A DNA stretch of 64,000 nucleotides. It comes from Candidatus Woesearchaeota archaeon. Lineage in GTDB: Archaea; Nanobdellota; Nanobdellia; Pacearchaeales; GW2011-AR1. The notes beneath the pieces are model-generated. The model was not told where the DNA came from. It saw nothing but the letters and a program-made list of their open reading frames with translations, and searched no databases. Location of the stretch: the NCBI GenBank assembly GCA_964544395.1, contig CAZJAO010000002.1, positions 5,071-69,070 of the forward strand. Direction: 5' to 3'. This document shows positions 45,936 through 51,110 of the stretch, piece after piece. A program made the translations under genes and the position numbers. Every line of letters begins with the position of its first letter. Position 1 is the first letter of the stretch.

Positions 45936-46283
45936 TTATATTCCGGCCTCCATTAATGCAGTATTAAAAAAATAATAGTTTTGCTCTGATGGCCAATAAG
46001 ATTTATCTAAAATTTTCTTTCTAATTCTTATATTTCCATCTTCAATTGAAATATCACTCGCATTATTTGCTCTGTTGACTGCCAAATGTCGAATAGATTT
46101 CCTTCCATCTTTTAAATCAACATCTCTGACTGCAAAATCGTAAAAAGATCCAATTGACCCGCAATAAAATGCTTTTAATTGTTCGCCGTTACATTCTATC
46201 TGAACAACATCTCCCCGTAAAAGCAAGGCTAAATCCTCTAACGTTTCTAACTTCTGTATCTTTGGTTGTGTTATTGTTGTCAT
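45936..46283 (-). CDS. Hypothetical protein of 115 aa embedded in the ribosomal operon between rps19 and rpl22.
   Basis: The ORF is intact and in operon polarity. It lies 2 nt after the rps19 stop and 1 nt before the rpl22 ATG. It shows no r-protein-like basic composition and no recognisable family. Confidence 0.45.
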   Translation of the reverse strand: MTTITQPKIQKLETLEDLALLLRGDVVQIECNGEQLKAFYCGSIGSFYDFAVRDVDLKDGRKSIRHLAVNRANNASDISIEDGNIRIRKKILDKSYWPSEQNYYFFNTALMEAGI

Positions 46284-46707: not shown

Positions 46708-47412
46708 TTATTTCTTCCTACCTGTTCTCTTAGGTCTCAAATGTCCAACTCTTCTTCCAGGAGGAGCATTTCTCTTTGCAATCTTGCTCTTTGGATTCTT
46801 TCCTCTACCTGAACCGAAGTAGTGGTCTATTGCGTTGACTTTGATAGCAGATGTTCTCGGCCATATTCTTCCGCCTTTTGACTTCTTAATAAAATGTTGT
46901 TTTCCTGCTTTAATAATCGGCTTGTCTAGTCTTCCTGCGCCTGCAATTATTCCTAATACTGCCCTGCAGTTGGGATCAAATTGTCTTTCTTTCTTGGAAG
47001 GCATTAATACAAATATTTTCTCTCCAATAATCCTGCTGACTGTTCCATAATTTCCTGCAGTCTTGATAAATATTCCACCATCTCCAGGACGAGCCTCAAC
47101 ACAGTACAACTGTGTTTTGACCGGAAGGTCTTTCATTCTTAGAATATCTCCGGGTTTGTTATTTTCCGTTTTACCAAAATGAATTGTCTGACCTTCAATC
47201 ATCCCTTTGAATGCAGGCATAAAGAAAATTCCTTTGTCATATTTTATCTTTGCTAAAGGAGCAGAATGTCCAAGAGAATTAAGCAATTTTAAGACAACAC
47301 CATCACCATCAATCTGATTTGGATATTGGATTTTATATTTGAATGATTGTCTTTTAACTCTATATGAAAGACTTCCATGTCCTCGTGCCTGTGAAATAAT
47401 TCTTTTACCCAT
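46708..47412 (-). CDS. rpl2: 50S ribosomal protein L2 (uL2)
   Basis: GKRIISQARGHGS...GDGG...GRRVGHLRPKRTGRK. Confidence 0.9.
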   Translation of the reverse strand: MGKRIISQARGHGSLSYRVKRQSFKYKIQYPNQIDGDGVVLKLLNSLGHSAPLAKIKYDKGIFFMPAFKGMIEGQTIHFGKTENNKPGDILRMKDLPVKTQLYCVEARPGDGGIFIKTAGNYGTVSRIIGEKIFVLMPSKKERQFDPNCRAVLGIIAGAGRLDKPIIKAGKQHFIKKSKGGRIWPRTSAIKVNAIDHYFGSGRGKNPKSKIAKRNAPPGRRVGHLRPKRTGRKK

Positions 47413-47687
47413 TAGATCAACCCTAGCTTCGTCGCAATGTCAATTGCAGGATGCTTTGAATTTAATTTCACATAAGCGTATTTATTGCTGCTTCTAATCA
47501 TAACTCTAATTTTTTCAACTTTAACATCAAACAAACTTTCAACTTCTTTCTTGATTTGTTCTTTTGTCGCGCCAATTCCCATTTTGAAAGTTAAAACATT
47601 CTGTGCTTCAATCATCATAACAGCTTTCTCAGTAACCAAAGGTTTCATTTGCAATATATCCATTTTGTTTTCAGTTTTATTTTTCAT
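47412..47687 (-). CDS. rpl23: 50S ribosomal protein L23 (uL23)
   Basis: ILQMKPLVTEKAVMMIEAQNVLTFKMGIGATKEQIKKEVESLFDVKVEKI. Confidence 0.85.
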   Translation of the reverse strand: MKNKTENKMDILQMKPLVTEKAVMMIEAQNVLTFKMGIGATKEQIKKEVESLFDVKVEKIRVMIRSSNKYAYVKLNSKHPAIDIATKLGLI

Positions 47688-47730: not shown

Positions 47731-48528
47731 TCATTTGATTCTCACTTCAAGATCTTTAATTGCTTTTTCAGTATACAATGTTAATCTGCCCAATCCGCCA
47801 TTTGCCAAATCTGCAAGGTCGACGCTGTTAGCCTTTCTTATATCAAAACCGTTCATCTCTAATTTCTCTTCATTGCCGATTACGATAAGTAATCCTGCGC
47901 TTTTCTTGTATTTTCTTCCTCTTGCTTTTCCTTTTCCGCTTCTTACACTTCTTTTCTGCAAGCCGACTTCGAAAAGTTGCTTTCCAAGTATTTTTTTAAG
48001 GCTCGAAATTAATTCTTTTGTTTTGCCGAATTTCAAATCAGAAACTATCAAAGGCAACTGATGCTCAATTTTTTCTTCGCGGAGTGTGCTGTATTTCTTT
48101 TTCAATTCTTCAACACTTGCAGTTGAACTTAATGCAGACAGTAATGCAATCTTCATTTCTTTTTTGTTTATCTTTGGAAGCTCCATCATTGACAAAATAT
48201 GCGGAGGATGCGCTCTCATTCCGCCTCTTGTTCCTGAAACTTCTGCTCCTACCCAATTGAATTGCGTTCCTCTTCTAGACATGATTTTTCTTGGAATTCT
48301 GGAACCACCTCTTCCATAACCGCTTCTCCATACATGTCTTCTATGATTAACTTTTCCTCTTGCTGCATGCTGCTTTCCAGCGACGGGTGAAGGTGAATAC
48401 GGCTGCTTTTTCTTTTTAGCTTCAAGTATCTTGGCAACAAGGTCTTCTCTTATTCTTGCAGAGAAGAAACTAGGCAAGTCAATTTCTTTTATGCTTTTTC
48501 CCTGATTATCTAATAAATGTGTTTTCAT
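47731..48528 (-). CDS. rpl4: 50S ribosomal protein L4 (uL4/L1e)
   Basis: PSPVAGKQHAARGKVNHRRHVWRSGYGRGGSRIPRK. Confidence 0.85.
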   Translation of the reverse strand: MKTHLLDNQGKSIKEIDLPSFFSARIREDLVAKILEAKKKKQPYSPSPVAGKQHAARGKVNHRRHVWRSGYGRGGSRIPRKIMSRRGTQFNWVGAEVSGTRGGMRAHPPHILSMMELPKINKKEMKIALLSALSSTASVEELKKKYSTLREEKIEHQLPLIVSDLKFGKTKELISSLKKILGKQLFEVGLQKRSVRSGKGKARGRKYKKSAGLLIVIGNEEKLEMNGFDIRKANSVDLADLANGGLGRLTLYTEKAIKDLEVRIK

Positions 48529-48830
48529 TGTGTGTAATATCTCCTTTTAACTCTTTCTTTAAGAATATCTGCTGCAACACTCTCAACGGTATGAACCCTG
48601 AATAGTTTCATAATGCCCTCAAAAGTATTAATATGGATTCCTGAACCTGCTTTTTTTTGTCTCTCATACTTATTATTGTATGTATTAGTAAATAGTAGCT
48701 CATCTAATTCATCACTATTCATTGCATCATCATCTGTTTTTGAAGAAGCCATTTTTACATATGCTTTTCTATCTATTACATAAACTCCTTGCCTGTTCAA
48801 CATCATTGGTATAGTGTCTAAATTTTTCAT
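48525..48830 (-). CDS. Hypothetical protein of 101 aa embedded between rpl3 and rpl4.
   Basis: Its ATG overlaps the rpl3 TGA (ATGA at 48827-48830). Its TGA overlaps the rpl4 ATG (ATGA at 48525-48528). No recognisable family. It is not S10-like. Confidence 0.45.
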   Translation of the reverse strand: MKNLDTIPMMLNRQGVYVIDRKAYVKMASSKTDDDAMNSDELDELLFTNTYNNKYERQKKAGSGIHINTFEGIMKLFRVHTVESVAADILKERVKRRYYTQ

Positions 48831-49777
48831 CTTAACTCCAAAAGCTGGAAATCTTTCTTAGCCTGTTTTTTAGTTTCTCTGAAAGAAGGAGTAATTAATA
48901 GCTGTCTTTTTGCTGGTCCTGAAACAGAACCTCTTACAAGAATGTAATCTGTTTTCACGTCGCCGAAATTCTTGATGTTCTTGAAAACCGTTTTTTCTGA
49001 ATTTCCCAAATCAACTATCTTATTGTTATAAACAACTCTTGTGAACATTCCAAGCTGTCCTGCCATTGGTGCTCTGAAAGTAACTCTTGCTGGATGCCAT
49101 GGGCCTAAACTTCCTGGTCTTCTTTGTCCCTTTTCTGATTTGTGTGATTTTAATGTAATTCCAAATCTCTTAACAGGTCCCTGCAATCCTTTTCCTTTTG
49201 TCAATCCTCTTAAATCAATTAATTTTCCTCTCTCGAAAATATCAAGAGCAGAAATTTCTTTGTGAAGATTTGCTTTGATGAAATTAATCTTGTCTTCAAG
49301 ACTTCCAACCAGACTAACTTCACTCAAATCAGGCGTTTTTTTGATTCCTGTAGTTTTAACAACAGAGAAGATGATAACTCTGACATCATCATATTCATTG
49401 GCATGCTCAAGATGTTCATGATTAGTTTCTTTTTTAGGAAGCTTTACTACTTTCTTTAATTCTTTGTCAAGATTCTTTGCAAGAACTTCTTTAGCAACAA
49501 TTCCGTTTTTGTAGAATCTTACTGAGAAAATCTTATTTTTTGGGCATTCAAGGATTGTTAAAGGAACAATTATTTTCTTTCCTTTAGTCATAGAATCAGG
49601 AGTATTATCAAGAACGAATCCAGAAATCATTCCTGCCTTGTAGCATATAAATCCTCTAAGTCCTTTCGTAGAATCTTTTTTTATTGTGCTCCAGTTAACA
49701 CTAGGTAAGAATTTATTGGCTCGCTTTCTGGGCCAAAATTGCAAACTTCCGCTTCTTGGTTTTCTTGCTGTAGGCAT
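48827..49777 (-). CDS. rpl3: 50S ribosomal protein L3 (uL3)
   Basis: RKPRSGSLQFWPRKRA...FICYKAGM...GKGLQGPVKRFG. Confidence 0.9.
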   Translation of the reverse strand: MPTARKPRSGSLQFWPRKRANKFLPSVNWSTIKKDSTKGLRGFICYKAGMISGFVLDNTPDSMTKGKKIIVPLTILECPKNKIFSVRFYKNGIVAKEVLAKNLDKELKKVVKLPKKETNHEHLEHANEYDDVRVIIFSVVKTTGIKKTPDLSEVSLVGSLEDKINFIKANLHKEISALDIFERGKLIDLRGLTKGKGLQGPVKRFGITLKSHKSEKGQRRPGSLGPWHPARVTFRAPMAGQLGMFTRVVYNNKIVDLGNSEKTVFKNIKNFGDVKTDYILVRGSVSGPAKRQLLITPSFRETKKQAKKDFQLLELR

Positions 49778-49877: not shown

Positions 49878-50345
49878 TTAAGGCGAAAAAGACTTTAACC
49901 ATTCCAGATATCGGGGAGCCTCCGGGCTGTTTTCAGCCGGAGCCCAGGGTGCAAAATCTTTGTGGGTTAAAGAATCATATTTTCCTTCAATAATTTCATA
50001 GACTACTGCTTCTGGCGATATAACTGCAACACCATGCCAGGTTCTCGGAGGAATTTCGACTATCCTATCTTTTCCGGATTCCTCGAGTAAAACTTTTTGT
50101 TCTATTTCTCCAACGTCATTAAAGGTAAAAATAGCCATTTTCCCGTAGAGAATTGAAAATAATTCAATCTTATCCGGGTTTTCATGTTTATGTGGCTGAA
50201 AATAAGTATCAGACAGGCCAGCATTGATCATTCTTTGAAGAACTTCATCCGGCTGATGGAAACAATAAATTGCCCTTTTTCTGGGCGATGTCCTTGCTTT
50301 TTGTAGTGTTTCCTCTAAAATCTTAGGGGTTAATGTTACTATCAT
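49878..50345 (-). CDS. Cupin-fold metalloprotein (WbuC-like)
   Basis: About 155 aa with a His-rich cupin core (FHQPDE...HKHENPDKIELFSILYGK...WHGV). Confidence 0.35.
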   Translation of the reverse strand: MIVTLTPKILEETLQKARTSPRKRAIYCFHQPDEVLQRMINAGLSDTYFQPHKHENPDKIELFSILYGKMAIFTFNDVGEIEQKVLLEESGKDRIVEIPPRTWHGVAVISPEAVVYEIIEGKYDSLTHKDFAPWAPAENSPEAPRYLEWLKSFSP

Positions 50346-50402: not shown

Positions 50403-51110
50403 TTAAGCTTCAAAATTAACTTCCTTCTTCATCTTCTCGCCATCAATATTCGCTTCCCGTATAATTTTGCCCTTTCTCTTCGATTCTTCTCGAACCAACA
50501 GGAAATCTTCCGACTTCTTCAAAGATTCTGGAACCTCTATACTTTCTATAACATAAGTGTGTTTTATGTCTGCTTTTTTGAAATCCTCTTTTTCAAATAC
50601 AAACCCCTTTCCAATAGCAGCATCAGTTGTAATGACCTTGCAGAAATTTACCTTTTGTTCTCCATCCTCTTTGTTTTTCGGCTTTCCGGATTTCGGAGCT
50701 TTTGGCTTTATTTTAAGCTCGGTATCATCTGTTTTGAAACTTAATGCAAAGAAGGCTTTTGGGAATTCATTAAGCAATTTCAAAATTTCTTCACCGCTCA
50801 TGTCCTTGTCAATTGAATAGTTCTTTACTCCTTGGAATTGCTTCTTGGTTTTGAAATCCAGCTTTCCGGTTAAATCGCTTGTTGAAATGACTGAACCCGT
50901 TATTTTTGTTTTCTTCTCTCCCAATTTTACCGCATTTTCTCTTACAAGTTCATTTGCAAATTCTGCATCAGTAAAGATAGTGTATTTATTTCTTATTTTT
51001 TTCGCGCTGATTAAAGCCTTGTAGGGGAAGGTTCCTCGGCTGTATTTTTGAAATTGCAGATGAACGAGGGAGTCTGATTTGTTTAAAAAAATCTTTTCTA
51101 TGAAATTCAT
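50403..51110 (-). CDS. Hypothetical protein of 235 aa, Lys-rich, function unknown.
   Basis: Intact ORF with no recognisable family signature. Confidence 0.35.
   Translation of the reverse strand: MNFIEKIFLNKSDSLVHLQFQKYSRGTFPYKALISAKKIRNKYTIFTDAEFANELVRENAVKLGEKKTKITGSVISTSDLTGKLDFKTKKQFQGVKNYSIDKDMSGEEILKLLNEFPKAFFALSFKTDDTELKIKPKAPKSGKPKNKEDGEQKVNFCKVITTDAAIGKGFVFEKEDFKKADIKHTYVIESIEVPESLKKSEDFLLVREESKRKGKIIREANIDGEKMKKEVNFEA

Follow-up and report, generated by a model that had tools for sequence, protein, structure and literature searches.

What is a small open reading frame (ORF) of no recognised family doing between the genes for ribosomal proteins L3 and L4, and what keeps it there? 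The question is raised by a stretch of 64,000 nucleotides (nt) with a G+C content of 34.6%, hereafter the window, from contig CAZJAO010000002.1 of a Candidatus Woesearchaeota archaeon. Its minus strand carries an archaeal ribosomal protein operon in which the genes follow each other in the order L3, X1, L4, L23, L2, S19, X2, L22, S3, L29, SUI1, S17, L14 and L24. X1 is the ORF in question, X2 a second insert. The order L3-L4-L23-L2-S19-L22-S3 is a textbook case of frozen synteny, and phylogenomic studies use it as an anchor. X1 is best read as an accessory orphan gene that rides on the translational coupling of L3 to L4, and is kept in place by the coupling and by weak selection on the encoded protein. 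From the sequences we put at about 0.6 the probability that X1 is a genuine, translated, lineage-restricted orphan gene set within the L3-to-L4 coupling chain.

A preliminary description of the window had placed a 101 amino acid (aa) ORF on the minus strand between L3 and L4, with ATGA overlaps on both sides, and had taken it for a real gene rather than a random ORF. The ORF listing confirms its coordinates, and both overlaps are found at the expected positions (Table 1). In 200,000 shuffles an open frame of 100 codons at the composition of X1 was obtained with a frequency of 8e-5. The identical protein is encoded by at least 23 independently assembled contigs (ENA, JGI and Logan), always in the order L3-X1-L4, and six contigs compared to the window feature zero mismatches across 5.1 kb. 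An assembly error at the junctions, which the same description had named as grounds for refutation, is therefore excluded.

The claim that X1 belongs to no recognised family also holds. No match was found in Pfam and NCBIfam (both at E up to 1-10), PHROGs and PADLOC, none below E 0.1 among PDB sequences, and no Rfam family at E up to 1. As far as its sequence can tell, X1 defines a new small-protein family without known domain. A phmmer search over 1.84 billion representative proteins returned, besides X1 itself, three true relatives of 70, 87 and 89 aa, one of which was recovered also by an indexed search over 5.8 billion clusters. Two further homologs, of 66 aa (L092) and 81 aa (L094), were found by looking up the context of close L2 homologs; here and below, L-numbers of three digits are labels of related loci. 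All five homologs (66-89 aa; L007, L088, L089, L092 and L094) are located in the L3-L4 slot, and conservation in relatives, proposed earlier as a check on the gene, is thus found at the same position in five other lineages. Wherever the junctions are visible the overlap arrangement is similar: the homologs of L007, L088 and L094 overlap L3 as well as L4, and that of L089 overlaps L4, while the L092 homolog starts 1 nt past the L3 stop codon and has a 4-nt overlap with L4. A scan of metagenome contigs with the X1 family alignment hit one locus only, already known, and no relative was found in viral contigs (IMG/VR). X1 is not detectable in 80 GTDB species relatives. The 80 species-level relatives retrieved via L3 carry Woesearchaeota, Pacearchaeota or Nanoarchaeota (DPANN) labels throughout, save a few apparently mislabelled bins. 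The X1 family is real, syntenic and very narrowly distributed, being found in six closely related Woese/Pacearchaeal (DPANN) lineages. With no homologs beyond this narrow clade in an exhaustive search, X1 is an orphan gene.

The X1 proteins are 40-76% identical in alignable parts, the flanking proteins 80-98%. The ratio of nonsynonymous to synonymous substitution rates (dN/dS, Nei-Gojobori) of X1 is 0.24-0.67. It falls significantly short of 1 in 11 of the 15 pairs, which are not independent, and compares with 0.02-0.08 for L3 and L4 and 0.02-0.05 for two non-ribosomal neighbours. X1 is thus under weak purifying selection, with dN/dS of about 0.3-0.5, roughly tenfold that of all neighbours. 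Its length varies from 66 to 101 aa across lineages, and all insertions and deletions (indels) are in-frame. The frame was kept open through many such indels in six lineages in which synonymous sites are nearly saturated, and a block reading GVYVID is preserved via synonymous changes. The last five codons show reduced synonymous divergence (proportion of synonymous differences, pS, 0.32), which is consistent with nucleotide-level constraint from the ribosome-binding site and start of L4. Since dN/dS is below 1 and motifs are kept through synonymous change, some selection would seem to be added on the peptide itself.

The architecture of the junctions suggests how X1 could be accommodated. In insert-free relatives there is no spare sequence at the L3-L4 junction, and in most of them L3 and L4 either overlap (-4) or are 1-2 nt apart. 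Alignment with L082, L008 and L009 shows that the GGAG at the 3' end of L3 is located upstream of L4 in insert-free relatives, while in the window it precedes X1. The GGAG in the last X1 codons, carried by the insert, is read from the sequence as a new L4 ribosome-binding site. X1 is built as a coupled gene, on the same strand as its neighbours and with -4 overlaps both upstream and downstream. When 14 overlapping gene pairs were assayed in Haloferax volcanii and Escherichia coli, strict coupling by termination-reinitiation was seen in 13 (Huber et al. 2019, PMC6728339), and such coupling is lost when the two genes are about 20 nt apart (Huber et al. 2023, PMC10666635). X1 resembles those pairs in its overlaps, which are of the canonical ATGA (-4) type at either end, and in the intragenic GGAG that precedes each restart. 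It differs in that those pairs are established genes, often encoding parts of one complex, whereas here a fast-evolving orphan has come to stand between two genes that were coupled already.

By analogy with these pairs, termination-reinitiation is most likely the mechanism by which X1 links L3 and L4: ribosomes finishing L3 would reinitiate on X1, and ribosomes finishing X1 would reinitiate on L4. Because about 20 nt of spacing abolish coupling, inserts would be tolerated only as relay ORFs, and DNA landing at the L3-L4 junction would survive only as an ORF that fills the gap and overlaps at both ends. X1 and nearly all ORFs found in such slots have exactly this anatomy. Once X1 is in place, nonsense mutations, frameshifts or imprecise deletions within it would starve L4 of ribosomes. 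This lock-in and a modest selection on the product would together keep X1, and may explain its persistence, its variable length and its conserved ends.

The protein itself can be described in outline (Table 1). The window lineage has acquired an acidic insertion, about 29 extra residues in total, that is absent from all five homologs. A common pattern emerges from two AlphaFold2 runs, namely an N-terminal beta-hairpin near the GxYVxD motif, a helix, a variable linker and two C-terminal helices. The predicted fold is accordingly a beta-hairpin followed by helices, the last one basic, to be taken as secondary-structure tendencies only. The isoelectric point (pI) of the four homologs analysed ranges from 6.7 to 9.8 (9.2-9.8 in three, 6.7 in one), ribosomal proteins in this operon being around 10. 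The folding energy of the X1 RNA reveals no excess structure over shuffles (z = -0.18), and no internal terminator-like site is present on the X1 coding strand.

Table 1. Coordinates of X1, of its coupling partners and of related features in the window
Feature	Positions	Strand	Basis and remarks
X1 coding sequence	48525..48830	-	ORF listing; 101 aa, ATG start
Ribosomal protein L3 gene, upstream coupling partner of X1	48827..49777	-	PF00297, E 2.5e-52
Ribosomal protein L4 gene, downstream coupling partner of X1	47731..48528	-	PF00573, E 8e-17
ATGA overlap, L3 stop (TGA) / X1 start (ATG)	48827..48830	-	Plus-strand TCAT; sequence reads TTAAGATGAAAAAT
ATGA overlap, X1 stop (TGA) / L4 start (ATG)	48525..48528	-	Plus-strand TCAT; sequence reads ACACAATGAAAACA
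GGAG Shine-Dalgarno-like motif, 3' end of L3	48836..48839	-	5 nt upstream of X1 ATG
GGAG in last X1 codons (AAA AGG AGA = K-R-R)	48541..48544	-	12 nt upstream of L4 ATG
Conserved N-terminal block, X1 residues 7-27, IPMMLNRQGVYVIDRKAYVKM	48750..48812	-	Alignments; predicted beta-hairpin then short helix (low confidence)
Main part (X1 residues 28-51) of in-frame acidic insertion unique to window lineage	48678..48749	-	Alignments
Conserved C-terminal block, X1 residues 64-96, GIHINTFEGIMKLFRVHTVESVAADILKERVKR	48543..48641	-	Alignments; two predicted helices
X2, insert between S19 and L22, unrelated to X1	45936..46283	-	ORF listing

Several observations weigh against a gene retained for its product and locked in by coupling. 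Strong constraint is seen in no block of X1 (dN/dS 0.18-0.87 per block), and 12 residues of the best-conserved region, NTFEGIMKLFRV, are present in three homologs and missing in three; the X1 product may for these reasons matter little. The AlphaFold2 models are unreliable, with predicted local distance difference test (pLDDT) scores of 50 for the window protein and 47 for the compact homolog P0003, both obtained from four-sequence alignments. Finally, a nested lineage, L082, has lost X1 cleanly, and the lock-in is thus escapable. In neighbour-joining trees of the flanking ribosomal proteins the window groups with L094, L095, L088, L089 and L007, L082 is sister to these, and L092 and L093 fall outside. 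L082 has no X1, its L3-L4 junction reading AGA TAA A ATG, and the more distant L092 hosts X1. Most simply, X1 would have been gained before L092 split off and then cleanly lost once, in L082; exchange between lineages through recombination is a possible alternative. Sliding-window identities between lineages are uneven, and do not provide clear evidence of recombination because the 3' end of L2 forms a tract of high identity in every comparison. X1 is dispensable in at least one lineage.

X1 is one case of a wider pattern. The preliminary description had held that L3 and L4 are contiguous in essentially all prokaryotes, and had implied that the X1 insert is unique. Neither statement survives in this clade. 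The L3-L4 gap is 150 nt or longer in 27 of 82 related loci, and in 26 of the 27 at least 70% of it is taken up by just one co-directional ORF; the junction is filled in about a third of the species, by many unrelated small ORFs in which double overlaps are the norm. A -4 overlap is found at the L3 end in 20 of the 30 L3-L4 slot ORFs of relatives, and at the L4 end in 19 of the 30; about two thirds of the insert junctions are hence of the -4 type, the same as direct L3-L4 junctions. Other junctions are similarly occupied: L4-L23 (23/81), L23-L2 (14/76), L2-S19 (11/75), L22-S3 (8/69), S17-L14 (11/57), L14-L24 (8/49) and S3-L29 (2/62), with none at L29-SUI1 (0/60) and SUI1-S17 (0/62). S19-L22 could not be scored by the gap measure, being confounded by a variable N-terminal extension of L22. 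In the window, L22 (45335-45934, minus strand) carries a lysine/glutamate-rich N-terminal extension of about 66 residues, and total length varies from 172 to 199 aa among close relatives; the extension inflates apparent S19-L22 gaps in similarity-based surveys.

The slot ORFs fall into 15 small families and 79 singletons, and have a median pI of 6.7. Three families (fam3, to which X2 belongs, fam5 and fam6) are found in differing slots across species. Eight slot-ORF representatives, the exonuclease family described below aside, gave no significant Pfam match, and the flanking sequence examined, about 0.5 Mb, contained no homolog of slot-ORF families beyond the operon block. All-against-all hhalign comparisons give at most 37% probability, and do not unite the L3-L4 slot families as descendants of a single ancient, fast-evolving slot gene. 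The comparison of X1 with fam8, which comprises L3-L4 slot ORFs of L013, L021 and L028, is limited to an N-terminal M..n..G.YVID motif aligning over 22-25 columns; hhalign probability is 32% with four X1 sequences and 13% with six, and hmmsearch gives E 0.14 for L013. X1 evolves so fast that orthologs in other genera would not be recognisable, and a common origin of slot families is therefore possible. On the whole, most junctions from L3 to L24 hold small co-directional ORFs in 12-33% of Woese/Pacearchaeal species, and these ORFs belong to dozens of unrelated, fast-turnover families. In full-text literature searches no description was found of inserts of turning-over orphan ORFs within a cellular ribosomal protein operon, which does not prove that there is none. 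The X1 family is new, and the clade-wide occupation of junctions is apparently undescribed.

Some slot ORFs are of a different kind. A DEDD 3'-5' exonuclease of 199-242 aa (PF00929 RNase_T, E 1e-10) is encoded at the L4-L23 junction in L013 (5888-6508) and 20 other loci, that is in 21 of 81 species, and is absent from the window, where L4 ends at 47731 and L23 starts at 47687. This exonuclease travels in the operon as a conserved non-ribosomal passenger, and may serve in rRNA or tRNA maturation. A 141-aa family without Pfam match occupies the L3-L4 junction in L026 (6939-7364) and L061 (6951-7376). Its two members are 73% identical, and feature a Rossmann-like pattern recalling nucleoside 2-deoxyribosyltransferase-like proteins; the family seems to be enzyme-sized, unlike other slot ORFs.

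The second insert, X2, had been described as independent of X1, and this is borne out: the sequences are unrelated, and their distributions differ. Both are present in the window species and in L007, in which the X2 homolog begins immediately after S19. X1 is found without X2 in L092 and in L094, although the ribosomal proteins of the latter are 92-98% identical to those of the window. L082 lacks both, and L095 also lacks X2. The co-occurrence that had been suggested as a sign of shared function is thus inconsistent, and since X1 occurs without X2 in two lineages, the two are independent accessory genes rather than a linked pair. The X2 family has six members, found in three junctions (L2-S19, S19-L22 and L22-S3): the window, L045 (2767-3102), L051 (9690-10013), L067 (8696-8944), L031 (8885-9292) and L039 (5107-5430). 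Its spread over three junctions implies movement between operon slots. X2 is missing from the closer relatives L094 and L095, though present in L007. A broader X2-like superfamily, seen by eye in an N-terminal eDL..l..GD.V and a C-terminal Y...L..aG motif, was not retained, as iterative hidden Markov model (HMM) searches ended at six members.

As to what the X1 protein does, a role as accessory protein unlinked to translation is given somewhat less than an even chance, an action on the ribosome or on L3 and L4 is doubtful, and a product devoid of any function of its own is unlikely. The last possibility is taken to its end if X1 is a mere relay ORF. DNA would have fallen between L3 and L4, only a variant that ribosomes can read from end to end would have been viable, and selection would now preserve the open frame, the two overlaps and the ribosome-binding site of L4 rather than any amino acid sequence. 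Much of what is reported above fits such a spacer. The nonsynonymous rate is about 10 times that of any neighbour, length has changed repeatedly by in-frame indels, conservation at the terminal codons is at the nucleotide level, AlphaFold yields no confident fold, other species fill the same slot with unrelated ORFs, and coupling needs near-zero spacing (PMC10666635). Yet dN/dS is significantly below 1 in most pairs, and the motifs GxYVxD and HT..SV..IL.ER.K persist through synonymous change. A spacer, moreover, should shrink in small genomes if deletion bias is assumed, whereas X1 has stayed at 66 aa or more at a synonymous distance (dS) of about 1, and has gained 29 codons in the window lineage. 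We hence regard a relay devoid of selected product as unlikely.

X1 might alternatively be a ribosome-linked factor made in the same amounts as ribosomal proteins: a ribosomal protein peculiar to its lineage, or a helper that escorts L3 or L4 or assists in their assembly. Uncharacterised ORFs in archaeal ribosomal operons have historically proved to be ribosomal proteins or RNase P subunits. The predicted C-terminal helix is basic, as are three of the four homologs analysed, and the lack of homologs of slot-ORF families outside the operon block points in the same direction. So does the location of X1 between L3 and L4 with 4-nt overlaps, which are enriched among subunits of heteromeric complexes (PMC10666635). 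Against this stand the absence of a match to any ribosomal protein family, a rate of evolution about 10 times that of ribosomal proteins, the loss in L082 with no visible compensation, and pI values under the ribosomal-protein norm. Furthermore, dozens of unrelated families are hosted by the slots, and position alone is thus weak evidence of function. A role of this type appears quite improbable.

A selfish or conflict cassette (antitoxin-like, anti-defence or host-interaction), spread by homologous recombination via the conserved flanking ribosomal genes, is very unlikely. It would account for the fast evolution and patchy presence of X1, for the presence of fam3, fam5 and fam6 in different slots in different species, for two C-terminal X1 allele types that conflict with the tree of flanking genes, and for the IS240 transposase adjoining the L094 operon. 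Nothing in PADLOC, PHROGs or viral contigs matches X1, however; it has neither a partner gene nor a nuclease or integrase motif, and terminal repeats are limited to a 7-nt ATGAAAA; sliding-window identities do not delimit a clear recombination tract, and X1 is confined to one slot in one clade. The label of novel cargo given earlier to the insert is a fair one, but no mobile-element, defence or viral signature was found with it. That X1 is a random ORF, or a product of faulty assembly or annotation, an idea favoured solely by its small size and absent annotation, is already refuted by the shuffles, the independent contigs, the syntenic homologs of five other lineages differing by in-frame indels only, and a dN/dS below 1.

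Other identities were considered for X1 and discarded. It is not a known ribosomal protein family, given the lack of Pfam and NCBIfam matches, its dN/dS and its restriction to six lineages. A fragment of a GNAT acetyltransferase was suggested by the best PDB profile match, 4f6a, with an E of only 0.11; the unrelated 3a27 (MJ1557) follows at E 0.21, and both are taken as chance. The entry 4f6a is deposited merely as 'BH1408 protein', and its GNAT identity is a reading of the aligned motifs. The position of the acetyl-CoA-binding Q/R-x-x-G-x-G/A signature reads YEPRGFHF, and X1 is less than half the length of a GNAT domain. A toxin-antitoxin, defence or anti-defence gene was rejected as PADLOC gave no match and the neighbours are always L3 and L4, leaving no partner ORF. 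A mobile element or homing endonuclease was similarly rejected, as there is no Pfam or PHROGs domain, and the sole repeat is the ATGAAAA found at the starts of X1 and L4. A regulatory leader peptide, of which most have fewer than 30 codons, or an mRNA leader does not agree with 66-101 codons, no Rfam match and no excess structure, and a viral origin is not backed by any relative among the IMG/VR contigs. X1 is not a split or extended part of L3 or L4 either, because tblastn matches of insert-free relatives span essentially the full L3 and L4 of the window. Derivation from a duplicated 5' end of L4 seems unlikely, at a profile comparison probability of 1%. Only in L092 is the head of the gene unusually similar to the start of L4 (p about 0.013, uncorrected for five tests), and neither donor nor paralog of X1 was found in the window.

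Additional features of the operon were noted. A protein of 235 aa without Pfam match (50403-51110, minus strand) has its gene shortly before L3, in the same orientation, in 64 of the 70 relatives with enough upstream sequence; it is under very strong constraint (dN/dS 0.02-0.03), and appears to head the operon. The spot between this gene and L3 is variable. It hosts a DUF6016/cupin-like gene in the window (49878-50345, minus strand), nothing in L007 and L088, and three uncharacterised ORFs plus a DDE transposase of the IS240 family in L094 (2933-5537). L3 of L094 (5689-6643) is split into two overlapping ORFs of 160 and 167 aa, probably by a sequencing frameshift in a long-read assembly rather than as a real pseudogene. 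The start of L23 in the window (47412-47687, minus strand) is ambiguous, as gene callers gave 78 or 91 aa on identical DNA. The L4-L23 gap is accordingly either 43 or 82 nt, and no other junction in this stretch of the operon lacks tight coupling.

How does X1 compare with known residents of such operons? Archaeal ribosomal operons carry conserved non-ribosomal passengers, such as aIF1/SUI1, RNase P subunits, SecY, adenylate kinase and Cmk. X1 is like them co-directional and tightly packed with ribosomal protein genes, and would like them be co-translated with these; so placed is also SUI1, between L29 and S17 in the window, and the DEDD exonuclease of the L4-L23 slot looks like a further member of this class. 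Passengers, however, are conserved across archaea and strongly constrained, whereas X1 is found in six close lineages and nowhere else among 1.8 billion representatives, with dN/dS about 10 times that of its neighbours. Lineage-specific small ribosomal proteins, such as archaeal L45a-L47a and mycobacterial bS22 and bL37, have been identified by proteomics or cryo-electron microscopy. They share with X1 small size, taxonomic restriction and lack of wider homologs, but are strongly basic and physically shown in ribosomes, while X1 is mildly basic to neutral and fast-evolving. Small variable ORFs are found between conserved genes also in phages, as 'morons' or in hyperplastic regions, morons usually having their own promoter and terminator; bacterial accessory-gene hotspots, flanked by core genes, are located between operons and include mobile-element genes. 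In both, as in the clade analysed here, many unrelated small ORFs turn over fast at fixed junctions of conserved genes. Slot ORFs differ in lying inside the most conserved operon of a cellular genome, in having no signals of their own, and in being stitched into a coupling chain.

X1 alone has modest stakes, and its significance comes mainly from the clade-wide pattern that it exposes. In one large archaeal clade, most junctions of an operon taken as the model of frozen synteny are repeatedly occupied by small, unrelated, fast-evolving ORFs. This is a natural system for following how genes are born, or land, and become fixed under the mechanical constraint that translation must continue. It is also a warning to annotators and binning pipelines that small genes at these junctions are real, and yields candidate ribosome-associated proteins, particular to their lineages, in organisms whose genomes are very small. 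More speculatively, operon junctions in Woese/Pacearchaeal DPANN might work as a launch pad for new genes. Slot ORFs, whether inserted or newly arisen, would be expressed automatically at ribosomal-protein levels, because their translation is needed to keep the downstream gene coupled, and some of them, X1 among these, could have taken on lineage-specific roles in modulating the ribosome or the assembly of L3/L4. Such a scenario is on present evidence improbable. If true, the most conserved operon would be a site of rapid protein innovation, and a source of clade-specific ribosome-associated proteins.

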